DNA of 25,543 nt from Myxococcota bacterium (lineage in GTDB: Bacteria; Myxococcota; XYA12-FULL-58-9; JABJBS01): positions 1 to 25,543 of the forward strand of contig JAYZAY010000046.1 of NCBI GenBank assembly GCA_036339465.1, given 5' to 3'. Every line of letters starts with the position of its first letter. Within the stretch, counting starts at the first letter, position 1. A program made the translations under genes and the position numbers. Positions 1,263-16,601 of the stretch are shown piece after piece. The notes under the pieces are model-generated. The model was not told the origin of the DNA and did not search any database. It saw nothing but the letters and a program-made list of their open reading frames with translations.

Positions 1263-1517
1263 TCACGAGTTTGGGGGGAGTGTGGAGCGGGTGTTGCGCG
1301 CTTCGGCATCCGACTTTGCTGCTTTTTTATAGATCCTATAGATTAGAAAGCCCCCAATTCCGATGATTCCCAGGGGAAGAAAAGTTAGAAATGCGGTGGT
1401 GTTGATGAATGCAATCCGAGCTTCGTCGTTGCTTTCGAAGCAAACTGCGCATGCATGAGCGAGTGTGGGTAAGAACATGATGGGAAGGACGGCTAGGGCT
1501 GGTGCGAGGAACCGCAT
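1263..1517 (-). CDS. Small membrane protein with signal peptide, CxxC motif and one further TM helix; last gene of the oxidase operon
   Basis: Signal-like N-terminus ending LAHA, then CAVC, then a hydrophobic helix and a basic tail. The ATG directly follows the subunit III stop (TAG-ATG). Confidence 0.75.
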   Translation of the reverse strand: MRFLAPALAVLPIMFLPTLAHACAVCFESNDEARIAFINTTAFLTFLPLGIIGIGGFLIYRIYKKAAKSDAEARNTRSTLPPNS

Positions 1518-2126
1518 CTAGAGATAAACCTGAATATACAAGATTGGCCAAACGCCCACCACAAAGTACCAGAAGGCCTGGGCTGTCCAGAACGTGGACG
1601 GGTCTAGATTGTTTCTGAGTAGTTTCACCAGGGCGTAGCCCAAGATAAGAATGGCGCAGACGGCGTGGAGACCATGTATCCCGATGATGAGGTAGAAAAA
1701 GGCGCCGTGGGCACTAGAGGTAAGGGTGAGTCCTTGGGCAATGAGGGCCACCCACTCAAATCCCTGGGCCACCACGAAAAACACACCCAAGGCCAAACTC
1801 AAGAGCATGGGCCGAAGTGCTTTTTGATGGGCTTCTTTGAATTTGCGGTTGGCAAGCCAAAGAAAGATCCCACTCAGTATGAGGGCGGCGGAATTGAAAA
1901 GGGTTTGTTCGAGAGGCAACCGAGGTTGCCCAATGGGGGGCCAGATCCCGCCTGCGGCGTTGGATTTCACGATCATGTGCGCACTGACTAAGCCGGCGAA
2001 GAACATAATCTCCGTGAGGATAAAGACAATCATGCCCAATAAACCATTGGGAATGGCAGGTTTGCTCTTACTTTCGGGCGGTGTTTCTTTGACCATGGTT
2101 TTTTCCACGGTTGCGGCTACTGTCAT
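1518..2126 (-). CDS. Heme-copper oxidase subunit III family protein (second copy)
   Basis: FILTEIMFFAGL, GFEW, FFYLIIGIHGLH and FWYFVVGVW motifs with 5 TM helices. The ATG at 2126 overlaps the upstream TGA (TGATG). Confidence 0.92.
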   Translation of the reverse strand: MTVAATVEKTMVKETPPESKSKPAIPNGLLGMIVFILTEIMFFAGLVSAHMIVKSNAAGGIWPPIGQPRLPLEQTLFNSAALILSGIFLWLANRKFKEAHQKALRPMLLSLALGVFFVVAQGFEWVALIAQGLTLTSSAHGAFFYLIIGIHGLHAVCAILILGYALVKLLRNNLDPSTFWTAQAFWYFVVGVWPILYIQVYL

Positions 2127-2602
2127 CAATGATTCCCGGCGGCGCCGCTTTGTTCCAAGACACGCTGAATCTCGGCTTTAGCAGCGATATTTTCCCACTG
2201 TGGGATGGTTATAATTCCCTCAGCGGTTTCGATTTCGTGGATTGCGCCCTGGTGATTGAGCACGTCGGGAGCCACCGCGGAAAAGAAGAGAAGCATGAAG
2301 GCCAAGGAGGTAAACATAAGGTAGGAAATGTATTTTTTCTCCATCTTCAAATGCATGAATTCACTGGCTACTAAGTAGGCTTTCACGAGGGCAATCCCAA
2401 ATGCCGTAAAGAGCACAATGGCGCGTCCGATGCCCGGCTGGCCAAGCATTTCGCCAATTGTAGGCCCGACTTCAGGGCCTAGAAAGCTGATGAACGCCAA
2501 AACGAGCAAGGCACCGTAGATCTTGAGGTAGTGCTTGGTGTGGTCGTGGTGCTCGCCATGCTCTGAAGCGTTTTCGTGTGCTGCTGCTTGTTCTTCACTC
2601 AT
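2126..2602 (-). CDS. Prokaryotic cytochrome c oxidase subunit IV family protein
   Basis: His-rich N-terminus, 3 TM helices and the IALVKAYLVASEFMHLK signature. It lies between the two subunit III genes. Confidence 0.88.
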   Translation of the reverse strand: MSEEQAAAHENASEHGEHHDHTKHYLKIYGALLVLAFISFLGPEVGPTIGEMLGQPGIGRAIVLFTAFGIALVKAYLVASEFMHLKMEKKYISYLMFTSLAFMLLFFSAVAPDVLNHQGAIHEIETAEGIITIPQWENIAAKAEIQRVLEQSGAAGNH

Positions 2603-2624
2603 TTTTTAACCTCGAATGGACGAA

Positions 2625-3194
2625 TTATTTTGCAATGTAGAGAAGGGGGAAGAGGAAAACCCAAACCAGGTCGACAAAGTGCCAGTAGTTGGCGATGAGT
2701 TCCACCCGTTGTACTTCCTTATTCTGCCTCACGTCGTTGGCTATCCATATCATCAGTATCATTCCGGCGATGACGTGAAGTCCGTGGATGCCTGCGGCCG
2801 TGTAGTAGAAGCTCCAGAAGGTGTTGGCGGTAATGGTGTAGCCCAGTTCTATCTCATGGGACCATTCAAAGAATTTAACCACCAAAAACACCAGGCCAAA
2901 CCCCGTGGTGACCATGAGAAGTTTGGCTGCCTTTTTATTGTTGCCCATTTCAACGGCATTGTGGGCACAGACGGCAAAAAAACTGGAGGTCAGAAGAACC
3001 CAGGTGTTGAAGGCACCGGCGTAGATGTTGGTGTGAATGGAATAGTTTGCCCATTCAGGATGACCGATACGGTGCATGATATAGCTGGCGAGCAGGCCGC
3101 CAAAGATAACGATCTCCGAAACAATCACCCACCAAACCGCCAATCGGCCTGTGGGGATCCCCGTCGCACTTCGTGTGGTTGCAATCGGTTTCAT
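2625..3194 (-). CDS. Heme-copper oxidase subunit III family protein (first copy)
   Basis: IVSEIVIFGGL, NTWVLLTSS, KFFEW, GIHGLHV and YWHFVDLVWVFLFPLLY motifs. Confidence 0.94.
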   Translation of the reverse strand: MKPIATTRSATGIPTGRLAVWWVIVSEIVIFGGLLASYIMHRIGHPEWANYSIHTNIYAGAFNTWVLLTSSFFAVCAHNAVEMGNNKKAAKLLMVTTGFGLVFLVVKFFEWSHEIELGYTITANTFWSFYYTAAGIHGLHVIAGMILMIWIANDVRQNKEVQRVELIANYWHFVDLVWVFLFPLLYIAK

Positions 3195-3227
3195 GTTGAT
3201 ACCTCTCCTAAAGTGATACCTAATTCG

Positions 3228-4922
3228 TTAGGATTCGTTGGGCAAATGCTGGGGCCAGTAGTCATCGTCGCGTCCAGGCACACCATATTCGTAGGGGCCC
3301 CGGTAGACCGTGGGCATTTCTTTGAAGTTGCCGTGTGGCGGGGGAGAAGCTGTGACCCACTCCAATGTGGTTCCTTTCCAGGGGTTCTCACCGGCCTTTG
3401 GACCGAAGAAGATGCTCCAGAAAAAGTTGGTCAGAAACACGATTTGGAATACGATCAGGGTGACCAAGGCCATGGTCGCCAGGACCCGGAGGTTTTGAAG
3501 CTCGGTGGTGGCCAGCTCGGGGAAGTGTTGGTAATTGTAGATTCGTCGGTGCTGACCAGCACTGCCCAGCACAAAAAGCGGAATGAAGATGAAGTTGAAG
3601 GGGATAATCGTCCCCCAGAAGTGAATTTTACCGGCGGTCTCATTCATCAGGCGCCCAAACATCTTCGGAAACCAGTGGGTCAGGCCAGCAAACACCGCAA
3701 TAAAGGCGATAGGAAAGAACGTGTAGTGAAAGTGCGCGATGACAAAGTAGGTGTCGTGGAAATAAACGTCTGCACCACTGGCTCCTAAGAAGATCCCAGT
3801 GACCCCGCCAATGAGGAATTCGGCGATGAATGCCAAGGCCCAGAGCATGGGGGTGCTCAAGGTGATGGATCCTCCCCAAAGGCTCGCAATATAAATAAAG
3901 AGCATTTCCGCGATGGGAATGGAGATGAGCAAGGTGGTCACCGTAAATACATTGGCCATTCGGGGATCGATACCCGCGATGAACTGATGGTGGGCCCAAA
4001 CGAAGAAACTCAGAATACCCGTGGCAAAGGTGGTGTAGAGGATGGTCTTATAGGCAAAGAGCTTTTTACGGGCAAACACCGCGATAATCTCCGCCACGAT
4101 ACCCATGGCCGGCAGCAATACCACGTAAACCTCAGGGTGGCCAAAGAACCAGAAGAGGTGTTGCCAGAGCACGGGATCTCCACCGGCGCTCGGGTCGTAG
4201 AAGGTGGTGCCAATGACTTGATCCATAAACATCATCACCGCGCCGGCGATTAAGGGGCCTACCGAAGCCATAAAGAGAATACTGGCGATGACGATCATCC
4301 ATACCACGATGGGAACATCAAACATCTTCATGCCGGGGGCACGACTGTTCATGGCGGTGGTGATAAAATTAATACCCCCCAATAGGAAGGCCACAAATTC
4401 TAAGGCCACCGCGACCAACCACATTGAGGAGCCGAGCGGGGTTAAACTGTATTCGGCTTTGGCCGAGAGGGGGGGATAGGCTGTCCATGCGCCGCCGAAG
4501 CCACCTCCTTCCACGAAAAATGATGCCAGGATGATGACGGCACTGATAAAGAAAATTTGGTAGGAGAGGCGATTGATCCGCGGAAAGACCATATCGTCGC
4601 AACCGATCATCAGCGGAATCAAGAAGTTGCCAAAGGCGGCGATCAACACCGGCATGGCCACCCAAAAAACCATAATGGTGCCGTGGTTGGTGATGAGCGA
4701 ATTGTAATCACCGGGGGTTACTTTGCCGTAGAATGGGACCTCGATGCCCGGAAATGCCAATTGCATCCTGAAGGCGTAAACCAGGAAACCACCGATGAGG
4801 GCCATAAACATCCCCGTAAAGAGATACTGCATGCCAATGATTTTATGGTCTAATGGGAAAATATATTTGCTCACCCAACCCGGTTCATGGTGGGCATCAT
4901 GTGCGTGGTCTGCTGCACTCAT
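3228..4922 (-). CDS. ctaD: A-family heme-copper oxidase catalytic subunit I (atypical K-channel)
   Basis: H80, GHPEVY (H262/E264/Y266), WAHH (H311/H312), HDTYFVIAHFHY (H397/H399) and the RR pair. D-channel D110, N99, N117 and N185 are present. Confidence 0.97.
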   Translation of the reverse strand: MSAADHAHDAHHEPGWVSKYIFPLDHKIIGMQYLFTGMFMALIGGFLVYAFRMQLAFPGIEVPFYGKVTPGDYNSLITNHGTIMVFWVAMPVLIAAFGNFLIPLMIGCDDMVFPRINRLSYQIFFISAVIILASFFVEGGGFGGAWTAYPPLSAKAEYSLTPLGSSMWLVAVALEFVAFLLGGINFITTAMNSRAPGMKMFDVPIVVWMIVIASILFMASVGPLIAGAVMMFMDQVIGTTFYDPSAGGDPVLWQHLFWFFGHPEVYVVLLPAMGIVAEIIAVFARKKLFAYKTILYTTFATGILSFFVWAHHQFIAGIDPRMANVFTVTTLLISIPIAEMLFIYIASLWGGSITLSTPMLWALAFIAEFLIGGVTGIFLGASGADVYFHDTYFVIAHFHYTFFPIAFIAVFAGLTHWFPKMFGRLMNETAGKIHFWGTIIPFNFIFIPLFVLGSAGQHRRIYNYQHFPELATTELQNLRVLATMALVTLIVFQIVFLTNFFWSIFFGPKAGENPWKGTTLEWVTASPPPHGNFKEMPTVYRGPYEYGVPGRDDDYWPQHLPNES

Positions 4923-4962: not shown

Positions 4963-5694
4963 TCACGGTACGCCGACGGCGGCGACGGTCGTGCTTAGGG
5001 CTTTGTCGTCAATTTTGGAGGCCACCATGCCTTCGCTCTGGCTTTGCATCCATTTCTCGTGTTCCTCGGGTGTTTCAATAAAGATTCGGCCGCCCATCAT
5101 ACCATGGGCGATGCCGCAGATTTCGGCACACTGTATATCGTGTTCTCCGGTGCCTGTGGCTTTAAACCAGCCCGTGATGACTCGGCCGGGAATTGCATCC
5201 TGTTTCAATCTGAAAACAGGAACCGAGAAATCATGAAGCACATCCAATGATTCGAGCTTGTAATGATAGGTGGTTCCCACTTTGACATGCAGTTCGTCGG
5301 TGGTGCGGATATCATCTTTGGTATCGAGCTTGTTGTCTGGGCCGGGGTGCTGGAAGGTCCAACCCCATTGCTGTGAAATAATCCGGACGGTTGCTTCGGC
5401 CGGCGGAAGGGTTTGTTTGATATCCACCCAAACCGTCACGGCAAAATAAATAATAAAAACGTCACAAACCAAGACGGCGTAATGGGGCCAAGTGACCCAA
5501 CGTTTTTGATGGGCCTCTTCCCCGGTGATGTATTCGGAACGGACCCCTTCCTTGGCGCGATATTTCCAAATCAACCAGAAAAAGACACCTTCCGATAGCA
5601 CGAGCCAGATGCCCGTGAACCAGGCAACCAGGTTGACAAGGAAATCGAGATCAGATGCGTAGGTGGAGAGTGGTTCAACCAATGACTCTATCAT
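4963..5694 (-). CDS. ctaC: Cytochrome c oxidase subunit II (CuA, no fused cytochrome c)
   Basis: Two TM helices, QQWGW aromatic motif, and a complete CuA ligand set DVLH...CAEICGIAHGMM. Confidence 0.96.
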   Translation of the reverse strand: MIESLVEPLSTYASDLDFLVNLVAWFTGIWLVLSEGVFFWLIWKYRAKEGVRSEYITGEEAHQKRWVTWPHYAVLVCDVFIIYFAVTVWVDIKQTLPPAEATVRIISQQWGWTFQHPGPDNKLDTKDDIRTTDELHVKVGTTYHYKLESLDVLHDFSVPVFRLKQDAIPGRVITGWFKATGTGEHDIQCAEICGIAHGMMGGRIFIETPEEHEKWMQSQSEGMVASKIDDKALSTTVAAVGVP

Positions 5695-5829: not shown

Positions 5830-5898
5830 GTGATTTATCTGCTGGGTGATTTATCTGCTGCGTGATTTATTTGTTACCCCGTGATCTATTTGTTGCTG
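5830..5898. repeat. Four degenerate tandem copies of a 16-19 nt unit (GTGATTTATCTGCTG core)
   Basis: Copies start at 5830, 5846, 5862 and 5881. The first two are identical over 15 nt and the last overlaps the cytochrome c stop codon. Confidence 0.8.
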
Positions 5899-6533
5899 AG
5901 TGTCCCGATATAGGCAATGACGTCTTTCATCGCTTGCTCATTGGGCAAAACACCCGCCATACCAATCATCTGGGCGGCCACGGCATCCCGGGGGTCAGAG
6001 CCTCGGATTTTATGCTTGAACTTTTTGAGCGAGTTGAGCACATACCAATCGTTTAGGTGGGTGAGTGAAGGTGCGCTGAGGGCCTGATTCCCCGCTCCAT
6101 CCGTACCATGACAGGTGGTGCACACCGCGAAGTAGGCCTGGCCACGGGTGGAGTCGCCGGTTTGGGCGACTTGAGTGGGTGCGGGTTTGTTTTGGGGCAG
6201 GCTGGAGATGTGAAGCGCGACGGCCTCCACGTCTCGGTCTGTGGGCAGTGTGAGCGACATAGGGCGCATTTTGCGGCCCTCGAGGTCATCGGGATGCATG
6301 CCTCTCCACCCTTTTTTATATTTCATCAGTTGAGTTTGTAGGTACCACTGCTCCATGCCCGCGATAGCCGGGGCGTGAATCTTTTGGTTGCCCTGGCCGT
6401 TTTCCATATGACATGGAATGCAGCTTGCATAAAGGGCCTTACCACGGGCATGGGGTTCTTCAGGGATTTCCTTACAGCCCGTGGCGGCAATCATGGCTAT
6501 TAAAGCGATCCCTAAGACGATCAATCGTTTCAT
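5886..6533 (-). CDS. Diheme cytochrome c (c4-like), predicted lipoprotein
   Basis: CIPCH and CTTCH, APAIAG/APSL..L...Y class I motifs, distal Met motifs KMRPM and QMIGM, and a lipobox-like ATGC after the signal peptide. Confidence 0.93.
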   Translation of the reverse strand: MKRLIVLGIALIAMIAATGCKEIPEEPHARGKALYASCIPCHMENGQGNQKIHAPAIAGMEQWYLQTQLMKYKKGWRGMHPDDLEGRKMRPMSLTLPTDRDVEAVALHISSLPQNKPAPTQVAQTGDSTRGQAYFAVCTTCHGTDGAGNQALSAPSLTHLNDWYVLNSLKKFKHKIRGSDPRDAVAAQMIGMAGVLPNEQAMKDVIAYIGTLSNK

Positions 6534-6945
6534 TTCTTCCCTCTACCAACATACGAAGCTTGATGGTTTCCCATTCGGTATCCCAGTTTGCTACGCATCC
6601 TTGACGCTTCCGTGTTCTCTACCCGCGCAATTGCAAATCGATTGGTTCAAGTCCAGTCTTCAATTCGCGAATTCCAGGCCGGCGTTTGTCTGAGTACATA
6701 GCGTTTTCGTGTTCCGTATTCAACTAAACGCATTATTAATTTAGTCAGTTTTGGGTTCAAATTCAAATTTTCGAACCCTATATTCCATGGCATTACTCTA
6801 TGAAAATTATAAGGTTTTCGGAAGAAAATTGATGGATTTTATTACAGGTAAAATTATCTGTCGGGTTGACGGGCTACAGGCCCTTGGATTAACCGCATGT
6901 TTTGCGGCCCTCTCTGGGGCCTATAACGGTTGTGAGGTAACGCGG

Positions 6946-7578
6946 ATGATTAAGAAATTCCCAGGAATGTTGTTGTTTGTCATGGTTCTCTTTTCCTGCA
7001 AGAGTATCGAACGTAAGCTCCCCGAATATGGCGAGGTGCCTGTTTGGGCTTTCATGAATCAGGATGCGCAGCCCTTTGGCTCGGCGCAGCTTTCTGGGCG
7101 GGCGTGGGCGGCCAACTTTATATTTACATCGTGTCCCACGGCATGTCCGACCATCGCTAAGAAAACCCATACGGTTCAAGAGAAAATGCGAGAATGGTTG
7201 CCGCAAATAAAGGAAAACCGGCCTGTGCTTGTGTCTATCTCAGTGGACCCTCTCACAGATACCCCGGCAAAACTTCGGGAGTTTGGTTCCAAACACTATG
7301 CAGATCATAAAATTTGGCAGCTTGTCAGCGGTGATTATGATGCCATGGAAAATTTGGTAACCAAGGGATTTCTTCAAGCGCTCGATCGATCGGGAGGGAA
7401 GGGAGAAAAAACGTTGAAGGAGGCCCTTAATCGCGAACCGACCCCACTGGACACGGTGCACAGCATGCATTTTGTGTTGATTGATAAGGTGGGTAAAATT
7501 AGGGGCTTCTATGGGCAGGATGCCAATTCACTGACGCGTCTGGCCGCAGATCTAAGATATTTAAGTGAAAAAATATAG
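6946..7578 (+). CDS. SCO1/SenC family copper chaperone, predicted lipoprotein
   Basis: FIFTSCPTAC (CxxxC), SISVDP..DTP and HSMHFVLID..G.IRGFY motifs. Start placed at ATG 6946 (GAGGT RBS, LFSC lipobox) rather than 6751. Confidence 0.92.
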   Translation: MIKKFPGMLLFVMVLFSCKSIERKLPEYGEVPVWAFMNQDAQPFGSAQLSGRAWAANFIFTSCPTACPTIAKKTHTVQEKMREWLPQIKENRPVLVSISVDPLTDTPAKLREFGSKHYADHKIWQLVSGDYDAMENLVTKGFLQALDRSGGKGEKTLKEALNREPTPLDTVHSMHFVLIDKVGKIRGFYGQDANSLTRLAADLRYLSEKI

Positions 7579-7599: not shown

Positions 7600-8088
7600 C
7601 TACTTACCAAAGCCACGTACAATTTTGACCAATTCGGAGACGGTTTCAGGCTTGTTCATCAGGTCTGGGTTGCCTGGCATCAAGGGGCTTTTGCCCACCG
7701 ACATTCCACCATTGAGAATGATTTTTGTGAGATAGTCGTCTTTGACAGACGCTTGCCACCCTTTATTCGTCAAATTTCTGGGTTTCGGATTGAGATTGGC
7801 GGCGCCTGCGCCATCACCCAAGCCCGTAGCGCCATGGCATAGGGCACATCGTTGGGCGAAAATCTCCTTTGCCTCGGCGCCAGGATCTGCAGGCGCGGCC
7901 GCAGCGGCGGCGGCTCCCGCCGCAGGCACACCCGTGAGCCCGGGAGCTTTCACGGCTTGTTGAGCCGCGAGGGTGGGGGCGGCTTTTTTGGTGGCCTCGC
8001 TGGTGGTGGGTGTCTCGGATTTGGAACAAGCCGCCGCAGCGACGAGTGCCACAAGGCACAGGGATAGAGCGAAGTCTCGTTTCTTCAT
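7600..8088 (-). CDS. Monoheme cytochrome c lipoprotein with long Ala/Pro/Thr linker
   Basis: AAAC lipobox, low-complexity tether, CALCHGATGLGDG, PKPRNLT and the SPLMP distal Met. Confidence 0.92.
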   Translation of the reverse strand: MKKRDFALSLCLVALVAAAACSKSETPTTSEATKKAAPTLAAQQAVKAPGLTGVPAAGAAAAAAAPADPGAEAKEIFAQRCALCHGATGLGDGAGAANLNPKPRNLTNKGWQASVKDDYLTKIILNGGMSVGKSPLMPGNPDLMNKPETVSELVKIVRGFGK

Positions 8089-8163: not shown

Positions 8164-8847
8164 CTAGTTGGTGGCGGTGGCGTCAGTAGGGCCAGCTCCA
8201 TTTATGTCTGTACCTTGAGGAGCCCTTCCCTTTGCATTGGTATTTCTTATGGAGAGAAGATAGGCCACGAGATTTTTGACCCCAGCTGCCTGGAGGGTTG
8301 GTCCCCAAGGGGGCATGCCTTTCGCGGCGACGCCTTTCCAAAGTACCAAATAGTTGTCTTTGAGTTCACTGCCATGAAGCCAATAAGCATCGGTTAAATT
8401 AGGTCCCGTAAGCCCCTCCCCATTCTGACCGTGGCAACCGGTGCATAGGGATTTGAATGTGGCTTTTCCGGCTTTGATGGTGGGCGCGCTGTCACCAAGA
8501 CTGGCCAAGACCTCGTTGGTGACGCCATCCAGAATTTTCGCCTCCACGGCGAGAATTTGTTCTGCGGTGGGAACCACAGGCGCCCACGTACCGGCGGCGA
8601 GTTCCGCTTCTACCTTCGCCATCGCCTCGGTGATGGGCATTTTTACAAAACCCAATTCCTTGTCGGCCCAGTCATAGGTGTTCAGTGCCGTCTTTTGATC
8701 GGCAAGGTATTCCTTTTTTGCAAAGTCATTTACATTGATGTGGCGGTGTTCTTCCCACTCTTGGGCCGCGGCCGCGACGATGAGAACCGTAACCGTCGCG
8801 AACACGATGGTCAGAGTTTTAGAGATGCCAATGAGTTTCTGTTCCAT
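8164..8847 (-). CDS. ActG-like membrane subunit fused to a CcoP-like monoheme cytochrome c
   Basis: N-terminal TM helix, ActG-like motif LNTYDW...GFVKMPITEAM, and C-terminal CTGCHG..G.G..GPNLTDAYWLHG...KGMPPW. Start placed at ATG 8847 (AGGTGA RBS). Confidence 0.82.
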   Translation of the reverse strand: MEQKLIGISKTLTIVFATVTVLIVAAAAQEWEEHRHINVNDFAKKEYLADQKTALNTYDWADKELGFVKMPITEAMAKVEAELAAGTWAPVVPTAEQILAVEAKILDGVTNEVLASLGDSAPTIKAGKATFKSLCTGCHGQNGEGLTGPNLTDAYWLHGSELKDNYLVLWKGVAAKGMPPWGPTLQAAGVKNLVAYLLSIRNTNAKGRAPQGTDINGAGPTDATATN

Positions 8848-8887
8848 GTTATCACCTAACGTCAAACCCGAAAATTATGGTTCCAGA

Positions 8888-10132
8888 TTAAAAATTTTCG
8901 TAGGAAAGAGCTTCTTTGAGCCGAGGGTCTTGGATTGGTATCAGCTTTTTACCGCGCATGGCGTAGCCGATGGTGCCCACAAACATGCCGCCTATGCCTA
9001 GGAAACAAGTAAGGTCGAGGATACTGAAGGGGATCTCGCCCGCAAGAGCATGACCATGGGAACTCATGGTAGGCATGACCATAAAATAATGGTCCACCCA
9101 GTGGAAAAAGAGGAGCCACACGGCCCAGCAGGCAAGGATTCTAGTACGCCTTTTGGCGTGTCGGGAAATCAAACCCACATAGGGGATGAAAAAATGCCCT
9201 AGGATGAGAAACCACACCATGTAGTTCCATTCGCCTGTTTTTCTGACGATGTACCACTGTGTTCCTTCGGGCATACTGGCATACCAAATCAACATATATT
9301 GAGAAAAACCAATGTAACCCCAGAAGAACACAAAGCCAAAAAGCAATTTACCGAGGTCATGGTAATGTTCGACGTTGATAAATTCACCGATCTTGCCCTG
9401 GGATTGGAGGTATTTTGAACCCAAAATCAGACATGCGAGGCACGACATGAAACAGCCGGCAAAATAGTAGACGCCAATGATGGTGCTGAACCAGTGAAAT
9501 TCCAAGGTCATCACCAAGTCCACAGCGGCGAAGCTGATGGTGAGGGCGAGCACGACCATGCCCGGCGCGGATACTTTTTCCATTTGCAGCGTGTTGAGCA
9601 CCTCACCACTCTCATCTTGTTCTAGGGACTTCTTATTGAAGTAACGCGCTAGGCACACCCAAAATAAGAAATAGAATGCGCAGCGGCCCGCAAAGAAGGG
9701 AATGTTGAGGTAGGGCTCTTTGAGGTGGAGCATGTGGTCTGTTTTAGCGAGCGCGTGGTTTGTCCATGCGTAGAGTTCGTGGTTGCCCATGAGCGTGGTA
9801 ATGATGTTGGGAAGGAACAAAAGCGCCAGGATGGGAAGCGCGTTACAAATAAGCTCCGCCTGGCGACGCAGGGTCACACTCCAGCCCGCTCTCGTGAGAT
9901 GCTGGAGGGTAACGAAAAACAAAGCGCCTAGGGCGATACTTAGGAAATATGAAAAGTTGGTTAGGTAGGAGTGGAGGAAGTTTGCCCACTGGTCGTTATG
10001 GGATTGGCCAATGGCTCCACTTGCAATTAGACTAACGATACCAATCCCAAAGCTAAAGAGGGTGATTTTACCCAGCTTGTCGTCGGCTTGAACCTCGGGT
10101 CCCTTGGTTGACGGCATATGTTTCGCGCTCAT
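8888..10132 (-). CDS. actF: Alternative complex III subunit ActF
   Basis: Polytopic membrane protein with QHLTRAGWS, EPYLN, DLVMTLEFHWFSTI and HYHDLGKLLFGF..FWGY..FSQYMLIWY motifs, in act operon position. Confidence 0.93.
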   Translation of the reverse strand: MSAKHMPSTKGPEVQADDKLGKITLFSFGIGIVSLIASGAIGQSHNDQWANFLHSYLTNFSYFLSIALGALFFVTLQHLTRAGWSVTLRRQAELICNALPILALLFLPNIITTLMGNHELYAWTNHALAKTDHMLHLKEPYLNIPFFAGRCAFYFLFWVCLARYFNKKSLEQDESGEVLNTLQMEKVSAPGMVVLALTISFAAVDLVMTLEFHWFSTIIGVYYFAGCFMSCLACLILGSKYLQSQGKIGEFINVEHYHDLGKLLFGFVFFWGYIGFSQYMLIWYASMPEGTQWYIVRKTGEWNYMVWFLILGHFFIPYVGLISRHAKRRTRILACWAVWLLFFHWVDHYFMVMPTMSSHGHALAGEIPFSILDLTCFLGIGGMFVGTIGYAMRGKKLIPIQDPRLKEALSYENF

Positions 10133-10154
10133 TAGAATGCTCTCCGCTTCTCAA

Positions 10155-11366
10155 TCATTGAAACTTAGATTGCTTGTCTTTTTTAAGGTCAGCAACCTTG
10201 GCGTATTGGCTTCGTTGCAGGGCTCGAATGTAGGCCACGATAGCCCACCTGTCATTTACGGCGACACTGTGTCCATAGCCCATCATGTTTCGAATGCCGT
10301 TGGTAATAGTATTGAATATTTGTCCGTGGGGTTGGGTGCGCAGGTAGCCCTGGTGGAGGGAGGTGGGAGGAACCCAGGCACTTTGCCCTGTGGAGAGGGC
10401 TCTGCGGTTAACCATGCCGTTGCCATCGCCTGTTTCTCCGTGGCACGCTGAGCAATGGATATTAAATTGCTTTTGTCCGTTGGCAAGTAAGCTTTGATTG
10501 ATCACGACTTGTTTTGGAAGGGTGGCCGCCCATTGGTCGTCAACGATTCCGCGAAAAAAGTGGTCATCGAGTTGAGCTTCACCCACCGCCACGGTGCCGG
10601 GTATCTTTGAGCGCATGCTGCGGCCATCGGCGTAGAGTGAATTTTCGCTTTGCGACTTGAATTTTTGCTGGAAATCCATGTTCGGGTTGGGGTGGATGCG
10701 CGTGTTTTCCATGTGACTTACGCGGGCTTTTCCAATGACCGCGAGGGGAATGAATCCCGCGACGAAGAAACAAAGTCCCGCAGCGAGCAGTGGTTTGGGA
10801 ATGGCGGCACCAATGTGTCGATCATCCTCACATACTTCGAGGCTTAAGGGATCGGTGTCGCGCAGGAGTGCTTGGCTCGCGGTTGGATTGTATTTGGGGT
10901 CCGCGGCCTCGATGGCAATAAAGAATCGGTCATCGGTGGCGCGCGCGAATTTCTTAATGCGATTCAACGGATGGTGGAACGAAGGAAGCATATTTATCGC
11001 GAGACATCCAAAAATCGCGGTCAATGCGGAAAATAGAACCGTGAGTTCGAAGCCTACGGGCACATTCGCAGGCAAACTCCAGAGGGGTTTACCGCTGATG
11101 AGATATTCGTAGTCGTAGGCGTTCATCCACCACTGCATCAAGAGGGCGACACAGGTCCCGGTGATACCAGCGCCAAAGATAAGCCATGGCAGCTTGGTGG
11201 GTTTAATGCCCATGGCAGGGTCGATGCCATGAACGGGAAATGGAGCGTAACTGTCCCACTTCGTGTAGCCGGCATCTCGCACTTTTTCGCACGCCTTCAC
11301 CAGCTTGGCTGTGGTGTCGTATTCGGCGAGTAGGCCGTAGACTTTGGTATTTGAATCTTCTGTCAT
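10155..11366 (-). CDS. Fused ActD (DUF3341-like) and ActE (monoheme cytochrome c)
   Basis: The N-half has D.YAPFPVHGID..MG, ISGKP...PA.VPVGFELTVL and TDDRFF. The C-half has NMDFQ.K, DGRSMR...GTVA, CSACHG, GIRNM and DRWAIVAYIRALQ. Confidence 0.92.
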   Translation of the reverse strand: MTEDSNTKVYGLLAEYDTTAKLVKACEKVRDAGYTKWDSYAPFPVHGIDPAMGIKPTKLPWLIFGAGITGTCVALLMQWWMNAYDYEYLISGKPLWSLPANVPVGFELTVLFSALTAIFGCLAINMLPSFHHPLNRIKKFARATDDRFFIAIEAADPKYNPTASQALLRDTDPLSLEVCEDDRHIGAAIPKPLLAAGLCFFVAGFIPLAVIGKARVSHMENTRIHPNPNMDFQQKFKSQSENSLYADGRSMRSKIPGTVAVGEAQLDDHFFRGIVDDQWAATLPKQVVINQSLLANGQKQFNIHCSACHGETGDGNGMVNRRALSTGQSAWVPPTSLHQGYLRTQPHGQIFNTITNGIRNMMGYGHSVAVNDRWAIVAYIRALQRSQYAKVADLKKDKQSKFQ

Positions 11367-11385
11367 CCTAACCTCTTATGCTCCG

Positions 11386-12801
11386 TTACTCGTGTTCTGC
11401 TTTATAGTGGGGGTCAGCCTCGGGCATCACCGCTTTTACTTCCGCGATGGCGACCATGGGGACCCACCGAATGAAGAGAAGGAATAGGGTGAAAAAGAGC
11501 CCAAAACTTCCTAAGAGCATCAAACCATCGAACATGGTTGGCTCGAAATAGGCCCAGCTTGAGGGTAAGAAATCTCGACTGAGGGAGGTCACTGTGATGA
11601 CGAATCGCTCAAACCACATACCGATGTTCACGAAAATGGAGACCACAAACATAAACCAAGGGGTCTGTCGACACCACTTAAACCAGAAGAGTTGAGGCGA
11701 GATAACGTTGCACGAAACCATGATCCAATAAGCCCACCAATAGGGTCCGAAGGCCCGGTTGATGAATGCAAATTGCTCGATTTCGTTGGCGCTGTACCAT
11801 GCCATGAAGAATTCCATGGCGTAGGCGTAGCCGACCATGCTGCCGGTGACCAAGATAATCTTATTCATATTATCAAGGTGGCGAACGGTGATGAGATTCT
11901 TCATCCCGAAAAATTCCCGGCAGGGAACAGCCAGGGTGACCACCATTCCAAAGCCACTAAAGATGGCGCCAGCCACAAAGTAGGGCGGGAAGATAGTGGT
12001 GTGCCAACCCGGGAGCTGGGAGGTGGCAAAGTCGAAGGATACCACAGAGTGAACCGACAAAACCAGTGGCGTGGCGAGCCCGGCGAGGATGAGATACACC
12101 CGCTCATAGCGGTGCCAGTGGCGGGAAGAGCCTGTCCAGCCCATAGAGAAAATGCCGTACATGATCTTGCGGATCTTGGTGGAGGCGCGATCCCTGAGCG
12201 TCGCCAAATCGGGAAGCATTCCGAAATACCAAAAGAGGATAGAGACGGTGGCATAGGTTCCAACCGCGAATACGTCCCAAAGCAATGGGCTTCGGAAGTT
12301 GGGCCACATCTCCATTTGGTTGGGAATCGGAAAGAGCCAATACGCCGCCCAGACGCGGCCGATGTGGATGCCCGGAAAGGTCGCCGCACAAATGACGGCA
12401 AAAACAGTCATGGCTTCGGCAAAACGTGCAATGCTGTTTCGCCATTTTTGTCGGAATAGGAAAAGAACGGCGGAAATCAACGTTCCTGCGTGGCCAATAC
12501 CGACCCAGAAGACGAAATTGACGATAGGCCAACCCCAGCCAACGGGGTTGTTGTTGCCCCAGATCCCAACCCCTTCCCAGAGGAGGTAGGCGATACAGGC
12601 GCCAAACATTCCTAGAACCGAAACAGAGGCAAGGAAGGCCACCCACCAGTTACGGTTGATCCGAGCTTGTTCAGGCACGGAACAAATGGCTTCTGTAACG
12701 TCTGCAAAGTCGGCAGCACCGAGGGTTAGGAGGGCCCGTTTTCCCGGTGTTTCTTCTGTGTTGTCGTCCAAAATATCATTGGAAATGACGGCTGAGGTCA
12801 T
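11386..12801 (-). CDS. actC: Alternative complex III subunit ActC (NrfD/PsrC family quinol-binding subunit)
   Basis: [55 protein letters not shown] and GMWFERFVI motifs. Confidence 0.96.
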
Positions 12802-12804
12802 GGT

Positions 12805-15800
12805 TTACACCTTTGCCAAGTCAGGGTTTACGTTGCGTATTTTTCCGAGCATTTCGGTTCGCGGACGGAGATTTAACCCCCCCAACATTCCGTATGACCG
12901 GGCGAGCTTTCGCAGTTTGGATACCCGACTGTTTTTGTCGTTGATATCGCCGAAAACGATGGCGTCGCTGCCGCAGGTTTGTGCACAGGCGGGCGTGATA
13001 TCGCCGTCTGCTAGGGGCCGCTTCTCGTTGCGCGCCGTATCCTTAGCTTGTTTGATGCGCTGGATACAATACGTGCATTTTTCCATGACCCCTCGGAAAC
13101 GCACGGTAACGTCGGGATTAAACTGCATGGTCTTGACTTTATTTTCCGGTGTCTTCAGGTCCTCGTGATAATTATGATAGTTGAAGCGCCGTACTTTCAA
13201 GGGGCAGTTGTTGAGGCAATATCTTGTTCCCACGCAGCGGTTGTAGACCATATCGTTGAGGCCTTCTTCGGTGTGGAGGGTCGCGGCCACGGGACAGACC
13301 TGTTCGCAGGGGGCATTCTCACAATGCACACAGGCAACGGGTTGGCTAAGAATGGTTGGGTCTTCCTCATCCCCAGCAAAATAGCGGTCAAGTCGGAGCC
13401 ACTGCATCTCGCGGCCCTTTAATACCTGATCCTTGCCCGCCACGGGAACGATATTCTCGGTGTTACAGGCCATGATACAAGCGTTGCACCCATTACATTT
13501 GGAGAGATCGATCGACATCCCCCATTGGTGGTCGGCCTTGTACTCGAGGGCACCGAAAAGTTGTTCCTGCTTGTATTTATCGATCACCGGAAGGTGGTGT
13601 TCGTATTTCGTACTATCGACGTAGCCTGGGTCTTTTTGGTATTCGGCAAGGGACGTTTCCCGAATAAGGGTATGGGCGCGGCGTTCTCGTTCTTGGTAAC
13701 CGGTGTCATCGATAGCGTGGTGATTTTGGGTGCTTGCCAGTTCGTAATCCGCGCCGGTGGCGGTGATGGTTACGCCCTTTCTTTGAAAGGCCGACGAACT
13801 TCGGCGAATTGCGGAAACATCAAAACCGGGAGATGCGACACTCAATTTGGCAGACCCCCCGACGTGTCCGGCCTCCTCGCGCCCGTAGCCGAGGGCCACG
13901 GCAATAGAGCCGGTGGGCTGTCCCGGAAGCGTATAGACGGGGAGTGTTACCGATTGACCGCCGATTTCTAGCTTGATCATTTGGCCGTCATTGACCTTGA
14001 GGGTCTTGGCCGTGGATGGGCTTAATAGGGCGGCGTTATCCCAGGTGAGTTTGGTGGTGAAGTCGGGTAGCTCTTGGAGCGAACCATTGTTGGCAAAACG
14101 CCCATCATAGACCTTACCGTCATCGATAAAGGTAATCTCGTATTCCCCGTTTTTGAGATTGTCGTGTGAATTCAGCGAACCTGAATTCGGTGGGGTAATG
14201 GAGAAGGATTGAAGGGTGGCATCGGTCTTAACCGGGTAATCTGTGTTTGGCACTATGCCGTCTTGCACGAGTTTTCGCCAAGTGCGGTCGTTTTTGTTGG
14301 GCGCTGCGGCCACGGCGGTATCCGTGTTGGCCGCGGAAGGAGCTGTGTCAGCCTTTTCTGCTTCAAGGGCAGCGGGGTTGCCTCCTGCCATTGTCAATGC
14401 AGTGGCGCGAACCAAGGCATAGGCGGAATCTTCGCGGCCCATGAGCTTGAGGAGTAATTCTATTTGGGAATGAGACTTGTAGAGTGGCTCTAAGAGGGGT
14501 TGGGCGACGGAATAAGTACCGCTGAAAGAACGACCATCGCTCCAGGTTGCCAGCGCATGCGTTTCAGGAAGATGCCAGGTTGCGAGCGCAGCCGTCTCAT
14601 TGGCATATAAGCCCAGGTGAATCTTATTTTTCACCTTGTTCATGGCTTCGCCAAATTTCAGATCGCCTGTGGCGGAATAGGCGGGATTGGCTCCTAAGAT
14701 GAGGAGTGTATCCACCTTGCCTGTGTTCATGTCACTGGCCAGGGTTTTGATGGCTCGGTACTGGTTGGAGTTCGTTTTCGCGGCTATCCCTAAGACACTT
14801 AGGGTCTTGCCTAAATTACCCAAGGCTACATTCAACCGATGGGCCAAGGCGTGAACCTCCGCCGGTTGTCTGTATCCGACCGTGAGCAAGGATTTTCCTT
14901 GATTGGCCGCGAGGTCTTTGGCGAGGGCTTTGACCCAGGCAGCGATCTTGTGTGCTTTCAAAAAACCGGAATTGGGTGTCGCTTCTGGCCCCTCGATGGT
15001 CACACCGTGGGCTTTGAGAGCGCCCTGAAGTGCCAGAAGAAAGGGTTTAAGTTGTTCGTGCCGCAGTGGCAGGCGGTGGTCAGAAGAGACGCCGGAACTT
15101 GAGAAATGACTCTCCACGGCGTAGAGCCGATTCATCTTTCCGGCTTCAGGGTTTCGATTGTCCCCCCATTCCTTGGTGTGTCTGAGGGCTTCTGGATGTT
15201 CCGTGAGGAAGTCTCCGTCTAGATTAACGATGATTTCTGCTTTGGCCACATTGTATCGGACCCTCGTGCCTGCCCCGAATGCGATTTGGGCTCCCTCATC
15301 GACGTTGTCGCGGTTAAAAGTGGTGAATTCTGTCCAAGTGGCCTTGGGGAAGGCACTCAGAAAATCAGCCTTCACTTTGGCTAAGGTAACCGAGGCGCTC
15401 GGCTCTGCTAAAACGCGAAGGTTTTGGCCGCCGTTGGCCTTCAACTTGCCCAATAACTTCGATAAGTACTTGTCGAAGGTTTTGGCATCGCTGGGTTTGC
15501 CCCCCTGCAGGATTTGTTGGCTGCGGTCGGGGTCATAGAGCCCGAGGATGGATGCCTGAGCGTAGGTGCTACAGGCACCAAGGCTTGCTGGGTGCAGGGG
15601 ATTGCCTTCTATTTTGATTGGGCGCCCTTCGTAGCTGGTAACGCTCAAGCCTTGGCTGAATCCGCCGAGATTGAAAAGAGTAGCGTAGCTTTTGGTTTGG
15701 CCGGGTACCAGGCCAGCGGGTCGGCGCGTATGGGGAAGAATCTTCTCTTTGGCCCACATACCAGGACCTTCCAAAATGCAACCGCTGGCGCTTGATAGGG

Positions 15801-15969
15801 CCAGGGATGCGCCCATGAGCTGCATGAATCGCCGGCGCGAGACTGAGCCAGGTGCATCGACATTGACGTCTTTGAATTCCCGATGGAGATATCCTTGAAA
15901 TTCGGAGTTTTCGGCCAATTCGTCGAGACTACGCCAGTAATTTTCTGCTTTTGATTTTATCGATGACAT
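12805..15969 (-). CDS. actB: Alternative complex III subunit ActB (molybdopterin-oxidoreductase-like domain plus Fe-S domain)
   Basis: YWRSL.EL N-terminus, TAT motif SRRRFM and lipobox ASGC, EGRPIKIEGNP.HP. C-terminal Fe-S motifs are CNGCNACIMAC, CVHCENAPCEQVCP, CVGTRYCLNNCP and CTYC..PACAQTC. ATG 15969 overlaps the actA end. Confidence 0.96.
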   Translation of the reverse strand: MSSIKSKAENYWRSLDELAENSEFQGYLHREFKDVNVDAPGSVSRRRFMQLMGASLALSSASGCILEGPGMWAKEKILPHTRRPAGLVPGQTKSYATLFNLGGFSQGLSVTSYEGRPIKIEGNPLHPASLGACSTYAQASILGLYDPDRSQQILQGGKPSDAKTFDKYLSKLLGKLKANGGQNLRVLAEPSASVTLAKVKADFLSAFPKATWTEFTTFNRDNVDEGAQIAFGAGTRVRYNVAKAEIIVNLDGDFLTEHPEALRHTKEWGDNRNPEAGKMNRLYAVESHFSSSGVSSDHRLPLRHEQLKPFLLALQGALKAHGVTIEGPEATPNSGFLKAHKIAAWVKALAKDLAANQGKSLLTVGYRQPAEVHALAHRLNVALGNLGKTLSVLGIAAKTNSNQYRAIKTLASDMNTGKVDTLLILGANPAYSATGDLKFGEAMNKVKNKIHLGLYANETAALATWHLPETHALATWSDGRSFSGTYSVAQPLLEPLYKSHSQIELLLKLMGREDSAYALVRATALTMAGGNPAALEAEKADTAPSAANTDTAVAAAPNKNDRTWRKLVQDGIVPNTDYPVKTDATLQSFSITPPNSGSLNSHDNLKNGEYEITFIDDGKVYDGRFANNGSLQELPDFTTKLTWDNAALLSPSTAKTLKVNDGQMIKLEIGGQSVTLPVYTLPGQPTGSIAVALGYGREEAGHVGGSAKLSVASPGFDVSAIRRSSSAFQRKGVTITATGADYELASTQNHHAIDDTGYQERERRAHTLIRETSLAEYQKDPGYVDSTKYEHHLPVIDKYKQEQLFGALEYKADHQWGMSIDLSKCNGCNACIMACNTENIVPVAGKDQVLKGREMQWLRLDRYFAGDEEDPTILSQPVACVHCENAPCEQVCPVAATLHTEEGLNDMVYNRCVGTRYCLNNCPLKVRRFNYHNYHEDLKTPENKVKTMQFNPDVTVRFRGVMEKCTYCIQRIKQAKDTARNEKRPLADGDITPACAQTCGSDAIVFGDINDKNSRVSKLRKLARSYGMLGGLNLRPRTEMLGKIRNVNPDLAKV

Positions 15970-16601
15970 GTTGAGCAATCCAGTGAGGGATTTACGTTAT
16001 AAAGCTCTTTGAGCTTGGTTCCGAGGTGGGGATCGGTGGGTTTCCAATCCATGGCCGTGATATGCTCCACGGGTCGTAAATGTTGTTCCGGGGCTTTGTG
16101 GCAGTCGAGGCACCAACCCATACTGAGGGGCTCATGCTGGTAGACGACTTCCATTTGGTCCACCCGGCCGTGGCAAGAAACGCAACCAACACCTTTGGTT
16201 ACGTGAGCTGCGTGGTTGAAGTATGCGTAGTCGGGCAGGTCGTGAACCCGAACCCACTCAATGGGGTTGCCGGTTTTCCACGATTCTCGTACGGGTGCCA
16301 ATTTCGGACTCTCCGTATGAATCTTACTATGGCAATTCATACAGGTCTGAGTTGCGGGAATGGGTGAATGCGTGGCTTGCTCCACCGTCGTGTGGCAGTA
16401 GCGGCAGTCGACTCCAAGCTCGCCGACATGGAGCGCGTGGCTAAACGGGACGGGCTGGGTTGGCTGATAGCCCACATCGGTGGTGGCAGGCGAAAAGCCA
16501 AAGTTCACAATGAGAAAGGCATAAAACCCGCCACCGGCAACAGCTAAACCCACAAGAAATTTTATCTTATTGGTCCATGGCGGAAACTGAAACACACTCA
16601 T
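15957..16601 (-). CDS. actA: Alternative complex III subunit ActA (pentaheme cytochrome c)
   Basis: One TM helix, QPVPFSHALH, five CxxCH motifs (CRYCH, CMNCH, CVSCH, CLDCH, CSTCH) and LSMGWC. Confidence 0.96.
   Translation of the reverse strand: MSVFQFPPWTNKIKFLVGLAVAGGGFYAFLIVNFGFSPATTDVGYQPTQPVPFSHALHVGELGVDCRYCHTTVEQATHSPIPATQTCMNCHSKIHTESPKLAPVRESWKTGNPIEWVRVHDLPDYAYFNHAAHVTKGVGCVSCHGRVDQMEVVYQHEPLSMGWCLDCHKAPEQHLRPVEHITAMDWKPTDPHLGTKLKELYNVNPSLDCSTCHR

Follow-up and report, generated by a model that had tools for sequence, protein, structure and literature searches.

The lysine of helix VIII in subunit I, K362 in Rhodobacter sphaeroides, is held to be both defining and essential in A-family heme-copper oxidases, and K362M is the standard "dead" mutant. 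The stretch of DNA analysed here, 25,543 nucleotides from a marine Myxococcota bacterium (contig JAYZAY010000046.1 of assembly GCA_036339465.1, hereafter the window), encodes an A-family subunit I, CoxI, with methionine at exactly this position, which raises the question of how such an enzyme might take up its protons. A sequence-only reading of the window had called the K channel naturally abolished and had pointed to another proton route, another coupling ion or another substrate. We found that the lysine is missing throughout the clade of CoxI and that CoxI is the sole oxidase detected in its genome (G000; 4.17 Mb, 92.8% complete). Because the enzyme is Lys-free, strongly conserved and the sole oxidase in at least one genome, nature appears to have a working alternative to the K-channel lysine. 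Our preferred reading, over which we are evenly divided, is that this is a functional oxidase of the aa3 type: its K pathway would have been rebuilt on the same site with no Lys, and its D channel has gained a glutamate, E175.

The K channel and catalytic core of CoxI

CoxI was aligned by phmmer to all Protein Data Bank (PDB) chains, among which R. sphaeroides 1m56_A ranked first (E 3.7e-120), and residue pairs are given throughout as R. sphaeroides number followed by the CoxI number of the window. The residues on which the argument turns, together with the two genes that encode them, are located in the window as follows; TM2 denotes transmembrane helix 2.

3228..4922, minus strand: CoxI, subunit I of an A-family heme-copper oxidase of the Lys-free 'PIAEM' clade (564 amino acids; PF00115, E 3.7e-128)
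4963..5694, minus strand: CoxII (243 amino acids; PF00116), with CuA motif CAEICGIAHGMM and without a fused cytochrome c domain
3891..3929, minus strand: helix VIII segment of CoxI, residues 332-344 (LISIPIAEMLFIY), from the ungapped alignment to 1m56_A and the DNA read
4089..4094, minus strand: helix VI A277 (for S299) and E278 (for H300), from phmmer against 1m56_A
4125..4139, minus strand: active-site motif H262-P-E264-V-Y266 (CuB ligand, D-channel Glu and cross-link Tyr), from the phmmer alignment
4386..4400, minus strand: helix IV E175-F-V-A178-F179, replacing the upper D-channel serines S197, S200 and S201, from phmmer against 1m56_A
4008..4064, minus strand: K287 and the helix VII Thr/Ser ladder T293, T297, T301 and S305, where canonical enzymes have P, G/A, A, I and G
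3819..3821, minus strand: E368 of helix IX, canonically Leu or Met at R. sphaeroides 390 and absent from the sister clades
5461..5508, minus strand: start of CoxII TM2, Q63-K-R-W...P70-H71...D78, from a weak phmmer alignment

The query segment LLISIPIAEMLFIYIASLWGG pairs without a gap with helix VIII of 1m56_A, and within this helix T359 is replaced by I337, I361 by E339, K362 by M340 and S365 by I343; at the site of E339, Ile or Val is canonical. The DNA agrees: in coding orientation, codon 340 (3903-3905; cat on the plus strand) is ATG, for Met, and codon 339 (3906-3908; ttc on the plus strand) is GAA, for Glu. The replacements of K362, T359, S365 and S299 that the sequence-only reading had claimed were thus borne out by alignment and codons, and so was their coordinated loss, which in the window copy extends to the K-channel entrance Glu of CoxII (E101 of R. 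sphaeroides subunit II), opposite which Q63 lies in a weak phmmer alignment. Instead of the canonical K-channel set, the enzyme has M340, I337 and A277 in CoxI and, subject to that weak alignment, Q63 in CoxII. The constant offset of 22 between the two numberings, also part of that reading, holds from about residue 84 onward but fails ahead of the long R. sphaeroides loop insertions.

The catalytic core is kept, as had been claimed for the six histidines, Tyr266 and Glu264. His80, His262, His311, His312, His397 and His399 align to the heme a, heme a3 and CuB ligands of 1m56_A, and in our alignment named A1 all six are invariant or at least 90% conserved, H262 and Y266 being invariant. CoxI reads WFFGHPEVY with E264 and Y266, that is, the Glu of A1 enzymes and not the YS motif of A2 enzymes; GHPEVY is found in all 120 best relatives from the protein collection, and by its Glu the enzyme is classed as A1-like. 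The CuA site is intact in CoxII, and the best PDB sequence and Foldseek matches of CoxI are all A-family. Structure modelling, which the sequence-only reading had proposed, gave an AlphaFold2 (AF2) model of CoxI from a 78-row alignment with a mean predicted local distance difference test (pLDDT) score of 92.8, matching A-family subunit I structures at Foldseek template modelling (TM) scores of 0.85-0.89; one of the structures matched, 3om3, is that of the R. sphaeroides K362M mutant itself.

The D channel, which had been described as intact, is so at its entrance, where D110, N99, N117, N185 and S120 (R. sphaeroides numbers) are all present, but not in its upper part. There S197 is replaced by E175 in 200 of 200 rows of the family alignment described below, S200 by A178 in 199 of 200 and S201 by F179 in 200 of 200.

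Metagenome reads were a further check that had been suggested for the codons. Three runs with a marine or seawater metagenome label (X1, X2 and X5) gave contigs of at least 99% identity to the stretch; these contigs cover parts of the CoxI gene, codon 340 being covered by X1 alone. The X1 contig (3313-3992) agrees with the window at codons 339-340, although X1 may be the source sample. The X2 contig (3941-4337), spanning A277/E278 and the helix VII ladder, and the X5 contig (4137-4466), spanning E175, each show 0 differences.

A widespread and conserved Lys-free clade

In the protein collection 7994 proteins matched CoxI at E<=1e-50, the best 120 with 76-82% identity to it, and a scan of one genome per species found a CoxI relative encoded in at least 581 species-representative genomes. 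The 200-row family alignment combines these 120 proteins with 80 loci, overlap between the two sets being kept; locus counts here and below refer to the best 80 of the at least 581 species-representative stretches (72-79% identity, flanks of 6 kb). These 80 loci all come from metagenome-assembled genomes (MAGs), mostly labelled Myxococcota or Deltaproteobacteria, with some labelled Binatia, Oligoflexales, Acidobacteriota, Gemmatimonadota and others.

Position 340 is Met in 183 rows, Leu in 16, Ala in one and Lys in none, while E339, E175 and S334 are each present in 200 of 200, so that the question raised by the sequence-only reading, whether homologs share the PxAEM motif, is answered in the affirmative. 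Conservation is nearly as complete at K287 (199 of 200), T293 (185), T297 (199), T301 (198), S305 (194) and E368 (189). Position 277 is Ala in 192 of 200 rows, and position 278 is Glu in 139 and Asp in 61, an acidic residue at 278 being common also among K-bearing relatives. In the helix VIII region relatives have YGG for the WGG of the window copy. Judged from these counts, the large PIAEM clade is under strong purifying selection.

Trees were built with FastTree from 127 rows and by a short IQ-TREE search (LG+G4) from 50 rows; both are quick trees whose deep branches are weakly supported. The PIAEM family is a clade in both, with support of 99 (FastTree) and 100 (IQ-TREE, SH-aLRT). With this clade, and with E339 and a non-Lys residue at 340 in all 200 rows, the distinct subfamily postulated by the sequence-only reading is confirmed; by the same evidence CoxI belongs to a distinct, widespread and conserved subfamily and is no one-off decaying copy. 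Sister to it is a type with His at the Lys position, found in a relative of the same order (PFAVHLF; support 100), and the closest K-bearing representative is P0131 (SH-aLRT 89). The PIAEM family, its sister types and P0131 all fall inside a clade of 26 rows in which lineages with and without the Lys are mixed. Lys versus non-Lys requires at least seven changes over the 127 tree rows, and loss of the lysine is therefore recurrent in A-type oxidases. Two other Lys-free types proved informative.

L089 / L096 (G016:C193): sister type PFAVH, helix VIII LISVPFAVHLFAF, with His at the K362 position
L083-L086, L094, L095, L099 and L110 (G003, G005, G011, G016 and G029): third Lys-free type, PAEVLF, helix VIII IISIPAEVLFLNW

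The PFAVH type resembles PIAEM in E175/A178/F179 (seen in L089), Q313, S305, S334 and the mid-TM2 Asp of CoxII, and lacks the CoxII entrance Glu and CoxII His71; it is possibly a Lys-to-His version of the channel. The PAEVLF type, which reads WIFGHPEVY...PAWG and has a Glu two residues ahead of the Lys position, shares S305, S334 and the CoxII mid-TM2 Asp with PIAEM, its CoxII TM2 reading VVDGN with no entrance Glu. Neither type has E339, E368, the T293-T301 ladder, K287 or CoxII His71, all of which are PIAEM-specific.

After clustering at 50%, the family has one full-length representative at 77% identity to CoxI, and the next full-length neighbours lie at 44-47%. A 547-amino-acid representative at 62% identity (P0127) matches only query residues 9-409; its helix VIII reads PIAVITF, with neither Lys nor Glu, and it has E175/A178/F179 and Q313. 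This record may be chimeric or frameshifted, or else represent a lineage of intermediate position.

Possible proton entry without the lysine

When the 200 family rows were compared with 73 K-bearing representatives, about 100 positions were fixed in the family yet rare in canonical enzymes. They are spread over CoxI, with a notable run in helices VII-IX (R. sphaeroides residues in brackets): K287 (P309), T293 (315), T297 (A319), T301 (I323), S305 (G327), Q313 (M335), T329, S334 (A356), A338 (G360), E339 (I361), M340 (K362), Y344 (W366) and E368 (L390). Residues 291-307 are helical in the AF2 model, and by arithmetic alone T293-S305, spaced i, i+4, i+8 and i+12, form one stripe on helix VII, while S334 lies on the same helical face as positions 352, 359 and 362. 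On the side of subunit II, H71 and D78, both membrane-embedded in TM2, are each present in 79 of 79 family rows. The K channel is bordered by three helices of subunit I (VIII, IX and X) and by one of subunit II, helix II (PMC6115622; cited, like the other papers below, from excerpts), and the new polar and acidic residues thus sit in K-channel helices. With family-conserved E339, S334, T293/T297/T301/S305 and E368, and H71/D78 of CoxII, in the bordering helices, the word 'abolished' used by the sequence-only reading is too strong.

Some of these residues go with the absence of the lysine beyond the PIAEM family. Among 16 CoxI/CoxII pairs from the window and Myxococcota relatives (L092 and the CoxII of L119 were left out), all 10 K-bearing pairs have the CoxII entrance Glu (LExxW) and none a mid-TM2 Asp, whereas the Asp is present in all six K-less pairs (the window PIAEM enzyme, one PFAVH and four PAEVLF). 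Among the 50% representatives, Ser or Thr occurs at position 334 in 37 of 53 K-less rows versus 1 of 74 K-bearing rows and at position 305 in 42 of 53 versus 11 of 74, and S305, S334 and A277 go with most K-less lineages.

In the reading that we prefer, electrons would pass from alternative complex III (ACIII) through c-type cytochromes to CuA and on to the heme a3-CuB-Tyr centre, and the canonical K pathway (CoxII Glu, S365, K362, T359 and S299) would have been replaced, not simply deleted. A Lys-free polar and acidic path would run through the K-channel region at the interface of subunits I and II, made up of E339 and S334 of helix VIII, T293/T297/T301/S305 of helix VII, E368 of helix IX, and His71 and Asp78 of CoxII TM2. 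It would supply the reductive half-cycle with protons, in the manner of the B-family's own K-channel analogue without Lys, beside a D channel whose entrance is kept and whose upper part is rebuilt (E175 for S197; A and F for S200 and S201). The substitutions and their conservation, the clade, the operon and the status of sole oxidase in G000 are observed; a role of these residues in proton transfer, like O2 reduction and proton pumping by the enzyme, is inferred. A more specific version, which we put forward tentatively, holds that the key ionisable group of the K pathway has moved from subunit I to subunit II, to the Asp and His of CoxII TM2, working with E339, E368 and the helix VII ladder and with a second Glu in the D channel, in what would be a re-engineered two-channel A-type oxidase. 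If so, this moved-group oxidase, possibly with altered gating or pumping stoichiometry, would be widespread among bacteria of marine and other environments, and some of them would have no other oxidase.

A Lys-free input of this kind has a parallel. The K-channel analogue of Thermus thermophilus ba3 is built from Ser, Thr and Tyr together with a carboxylate of subunit II and has no Lys, and the proposed PIAEM path would resemble it in logic, as a Lys-free proton input in the K-channel position. The PIAEM enzyme itself lies outside the B-family: it has the D-channel entrance and the helix VI Glu (E264), ba3 subunit II matches only the CuA domain, and ba3 subunit I is not among the 41 PDB matches to CoxI at E<=1e-20. 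B-family oxidases have a single K-like channel (PMC11214002). From the canonical A1 aa3 oxidases (CtaD-CtaC of R. sphaeroides and P. denitrificans; 1m56 and 1ar1), with which CoxI shares fold (TM score 0.85-0.88), 37-38% identity, the six His, the Tyr, the GHPEVY Glu, the D-channel entrance, CuA and subunit III/IV-like partners, the enzyme differs in having no K362/T359/S365/S299, replaced upper D-channel serines with an added E175, the gained E339, E368 and helix VII ladder, CoxII His71 and Asp78 in TM2, subunit III in the form of two short proteins, and scores below the NCBIfam equivalog cut-offs.

Several observations weigh against the reading of a rebuilt pathway. E339 lies about 100 degrees off the Lys position by helical periodicity, and in many other K-less lineages helix VIII is without an acidic residue, so a carboxylate in this helix is not required. 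The CoxII entrance position varies within the family (E in 52, Q in 11 and L in 10 of 79 rows). With about 100 differing positions across CoxI, the cluster near the K channel could be partly coincidental; a common cavity for E339, E368, H71(II) and D78(II) is presumed; and the three K-less types with the CoxII Asp belong to one 26-row clade, so that the association may represent one to three events. Independent-pair tests that set K loss beside S305, S334, A277, T301 and other residues rested on five to seven pairs; they were without power and gave no significance. Lastly, a contig from an RNA library (X20; 4077-4351) shows 8 differences in 275 bases; it hints at most weakly that a close relative is expressed, and could come from a relative or from DNA.

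The strongest alternative is that the K pathway is truly absent and that all protons enter through the remodelled D channel, with Glu175 beside Glu264 aiding their partition and the remaining changes being structural. Conservation of the entrance residues D110, N99, N117, N185 and S120 and the addition of an invariant E175 fit this, as does the existence of many K-less lineages without an obvious replacement in helix VIII, and such a scheme has been proposed for K-less cytochrome c oxidases (COX) of iron oxidizers (10.1101/2020.03.01.968255). It does not explain, however, why CoxII TM2 has two invariant residues, His71 and Asp78, embedded in the membrane, why in the 16 pairs the TM2 Asp goes with K-less CoxI without exception, or why E339, S334 and the helix VII ladder are invariant. 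Moreover, S200->A and S201->F render the upper D channel less polar instead of more. We regard this alternative as doubtful but serious; a rebuilt Lys-free path seems at least as likely as none.

The iron-oxidizer enzymes are a known precedent. In iron oxidizers of acidic habitats and in relatives of theirs, Thioclava among them, Degli Esposti et al. described A-family COX1 proteins with the Lys changed to a hydrophobic residue and the COX2 Glu changed; K-less COX is rare in their account, which also notes that Archaea have lost the K channel repeatedly (10.1101/2020.03.01.968255, PMC8239418). A COX without K channel has also been reported for Ferrigenium straubiae (10.64898/2026.01.22.701106). 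In the excerpts cited, these enzymes share with the window copy the hydrophobic replacement of the helix VIII Lys, a change of the CoxII entrance Glu and an essentially kept D channel. They are A2-type by classifier and called rare, whereas PIAEM has the A1 Glu, is linked to ACIII and has relatives of its CoxI encoded in at least 581 species-representative genomes; and their entrance Glu is changed, while PIAEM members have Glu there in 52 of 79 and the window copy has Q. The excerpts do not mention E339, E368, CoxII H71/D78 or E175 for the iron-oxidizer enzymes, the two groups being compared by description only. K-less A-family oxidases are thus already in print for iron oxidizers, and the PIAEM clade adds a further variant. 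In the full-text literature searched, which did not extend to subscription papers, neither an ACIII-linked Lys-free clade nor its E339/E368/E175/CoxII H71/D78 signature is described.

For the question of the K-channel lysine, E339, E368, the helix VII ladder, CoxII H71/D78 and E175 offer concrete candidate residues. They open the questions of whether the lysine acts as proton carrier or in charge compensation, whether a subunit II carboxylate can take over its role, and how A- and B-type proton-input designs interconvert.

A second alternative takes the buried carboxylates (E175, E339, E368 and CoxII D78) as the sign of another coupling ion or of a lower pumping stoichiometry, suited to a marine low-oxygen niche. 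Several membrane-embedded acidic residues are indeed fixed in the family, and the contigs of at least 99% identity came from the marine or seawater runs X1, X2 and X5. Against this, no known Na+-site motif was found, although none was searched for specifically, the Na+-pumping precedent of Vitreoscilla bo3 is reported not to have been upheld (PMC6423279), and the family also occurs in MAGs of many different labels. We consider this explanation very improbable.

Very improbable, too, is a change of job, in which the enzyme would act mainly as a peroxidase, nitric oxide (NO) reductase or O2 scavenger with no need of K-channel protons. Laboratory K362M enzymes do retain peroxidase-type partial activity. 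Two published observations count on the same side, namely that the K channel is unused in the peroxidase phase (PMC10095113) and that A-family oxidases show some NO reduction (PMC11214002). Yet the genome search found exactly one PF00115 match in G000, CoxI itself, and no PF01654 (cytochrome bd subunit I) match, an absence that in a 92.8%-complete draft is not proof, and this only terminal oxidase detected occurs together with ACIII and a heme A synthase. The nitric oxide reductases (NORs) of the heme-copper oxidase superfamily, namely cNOR, qNOR and newer families, have lost the cross-link Tyr and/or have an altered CuB/FeB site (PMC11214002), whereas CoxI retains Y266 and the three CuB His, which are absent from known NORs as described there. 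The role is moreover filled by ordinary K-bearing oxidases in relatives: in G002 (94% complete; same family), ACIII is followed by a K-bearing A2-type caa3 oxidase, the only oxidase found in that genome. From this K-bearing oxidase beside ACIII (locus L097) it follows that the ACIII-partnered oxidase has been exchanged between close relatives. Oxidases differ among other relatives of the same order as well: a K-less PAEVLF-type enzyme is the only oxidase detected in G011 (92% complete), and G001 (98% complete) has the PIAEM type together with a bd oxidase. In G003 (86% complete), too, no heme-copper oxidase other than a PAEVLF-type enzyme was found. Because CoxI is the sole oxidase detected, with heme A synthase, an intact Tyr, CuB and CuA, and a neighbourhood of ACIII, cytochromes c and SCO1, the enzyme is most likely a functional respiratory O2 reductase, far likelier than one specialised for NO or H2O2, and the other substrate suggested by the sequence-only reading is unlikely.

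Sequencing error or a decaying pseudogene has a negligible chance of explaining the substitution, since Lys at 340 occurs in 0 of 200 relatives, which excludes error and chance, the frame is open, the operon is conserved and the run contigs agree where they cover the gene.

The operon, its neighbours and their annotation

In the window the oxidase operon adjoins genes for ACIII, c-type cytochromes and SCO1. Besides CoxI and CoxII, the following features were assigned, those of the ACIII cluster from Pfam matches.

5886..6533, minus strand: diheme c-type cytochrome (two PF00034 stretches; CXXCH at residues 38 and 138), with an N-terminal signal or lipoprotein/lipobox-like leader
2625..3194, minus strand: first subunit III-like protein (189 amino acids; PF00510)
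2126..2602, minus strand: subunit IV, caa3 subunit IV-like (158 amino acids; PF03626; TIGR02229 at 37.5 bits, passing the cut-off of 37.25)
1518..2129, minus strand: second subunit III-like protein (203 amino acids; TTG start; PF00510)
1263..1517, minus strand: small membrane open reading frame (ORF) at the operon end (84 amino acids; CAVC motif, leader-like N-terminus, one predicted transmembrane segment)
6751..7578, plus strand: SCO1/SenC copper chaperone (PF02630)
7600..8088 and 8164..8865, minus strand: two monoheme c-type cytochromes (PF00034 and PF13442; one CXXCH apiece)
8888..16601, minus strand: ACIII cluster
15957..16601, minus strand: ActA, pentaheme (five CXXCH motifs)
12805..15978, minus strand: ActB
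11386..12801, minus strand: ActC (NrfD)
10155..11366, minus strand: ActD fused to a C-terminal monoheme cytochrome c domain (ActD-ActE fusion; PF11821)
8888..10132, minus strand: membrane ORF of 414 amino acids, likely ActF, with weak likeness to ActC only (E 0.001)

Among the 80 related loci, CoxII, CoxIV and both CoxIII-like proteins were each found in 79, and the diheme cytochrome lies directly upstream of CoxII in 74. This cytochrome is likely the electron donor to CuA and probably takes the place of the cytochrome c domain that caa3 enzymes carry as a fusion. The 84-amino-acid ORF, which has no Pfam match, is matched by tblastn in 22 of the 80 loci. Within the 6-kb flanks, ActA and ActB occur in 17 of the 80 loci; the other genes of the cluster, ActC, ActDE and the ActF-like ORF, occur in 3. 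At locus L097 (G002:C409), ActDE is 60% and the ActF-like protein 52% identical to those of the window, and the CoxII of the oxidase carries a fused cytochrome c domain. An ORF of 390 amino acids on the plus strand (2616..3788), antisense to CoxI and the first CoxIII-like gene and rich in Gly, Val, Asp and His, has no coding support and is probably spurious.

Longer proteins formed two further groups. Apparently fused I+III oxidases of about 840 amino acids (P0158, P0164, P0173, P0174, P0193 and others) have Gln at the Lys position (PSGIQVF), and this clade also has Glu at the D-channel N207 position. Proteins of 700-960 amino acids with PF00115 matches of about 400 bits in Myxococcota relatives, considered as fused K-less types, were dropped from the CoxI/CoxII pairing: none of the ten loci concerned (L100-L109) matched CoxI by phmmer or tblastn, and the 805-amino-acid protein of L100 (G024:C10), the only such match inspected, is a cbb3 CcoN-CcoO fusion, as the whole group appears to be. 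No cbb3-like long PF00115 protein was found in G000.

Annotation of the clade is affected as well. CoxI scores 570 bits against TIGR02891, under its NCBIfam equivalog cut-off of 670.75, and CoxII 123.6 bits against TIGR02866, under its cut-off of 147.7; P0001 and P0002 fall under the NCBIfam CtaD and CoxB equivalog cut-offs. Many relatives are named "cbb3-type" in the source records, in full 'cbb3-type cytochrome c oxidase subunit I', a misleading name for an A-family clade.

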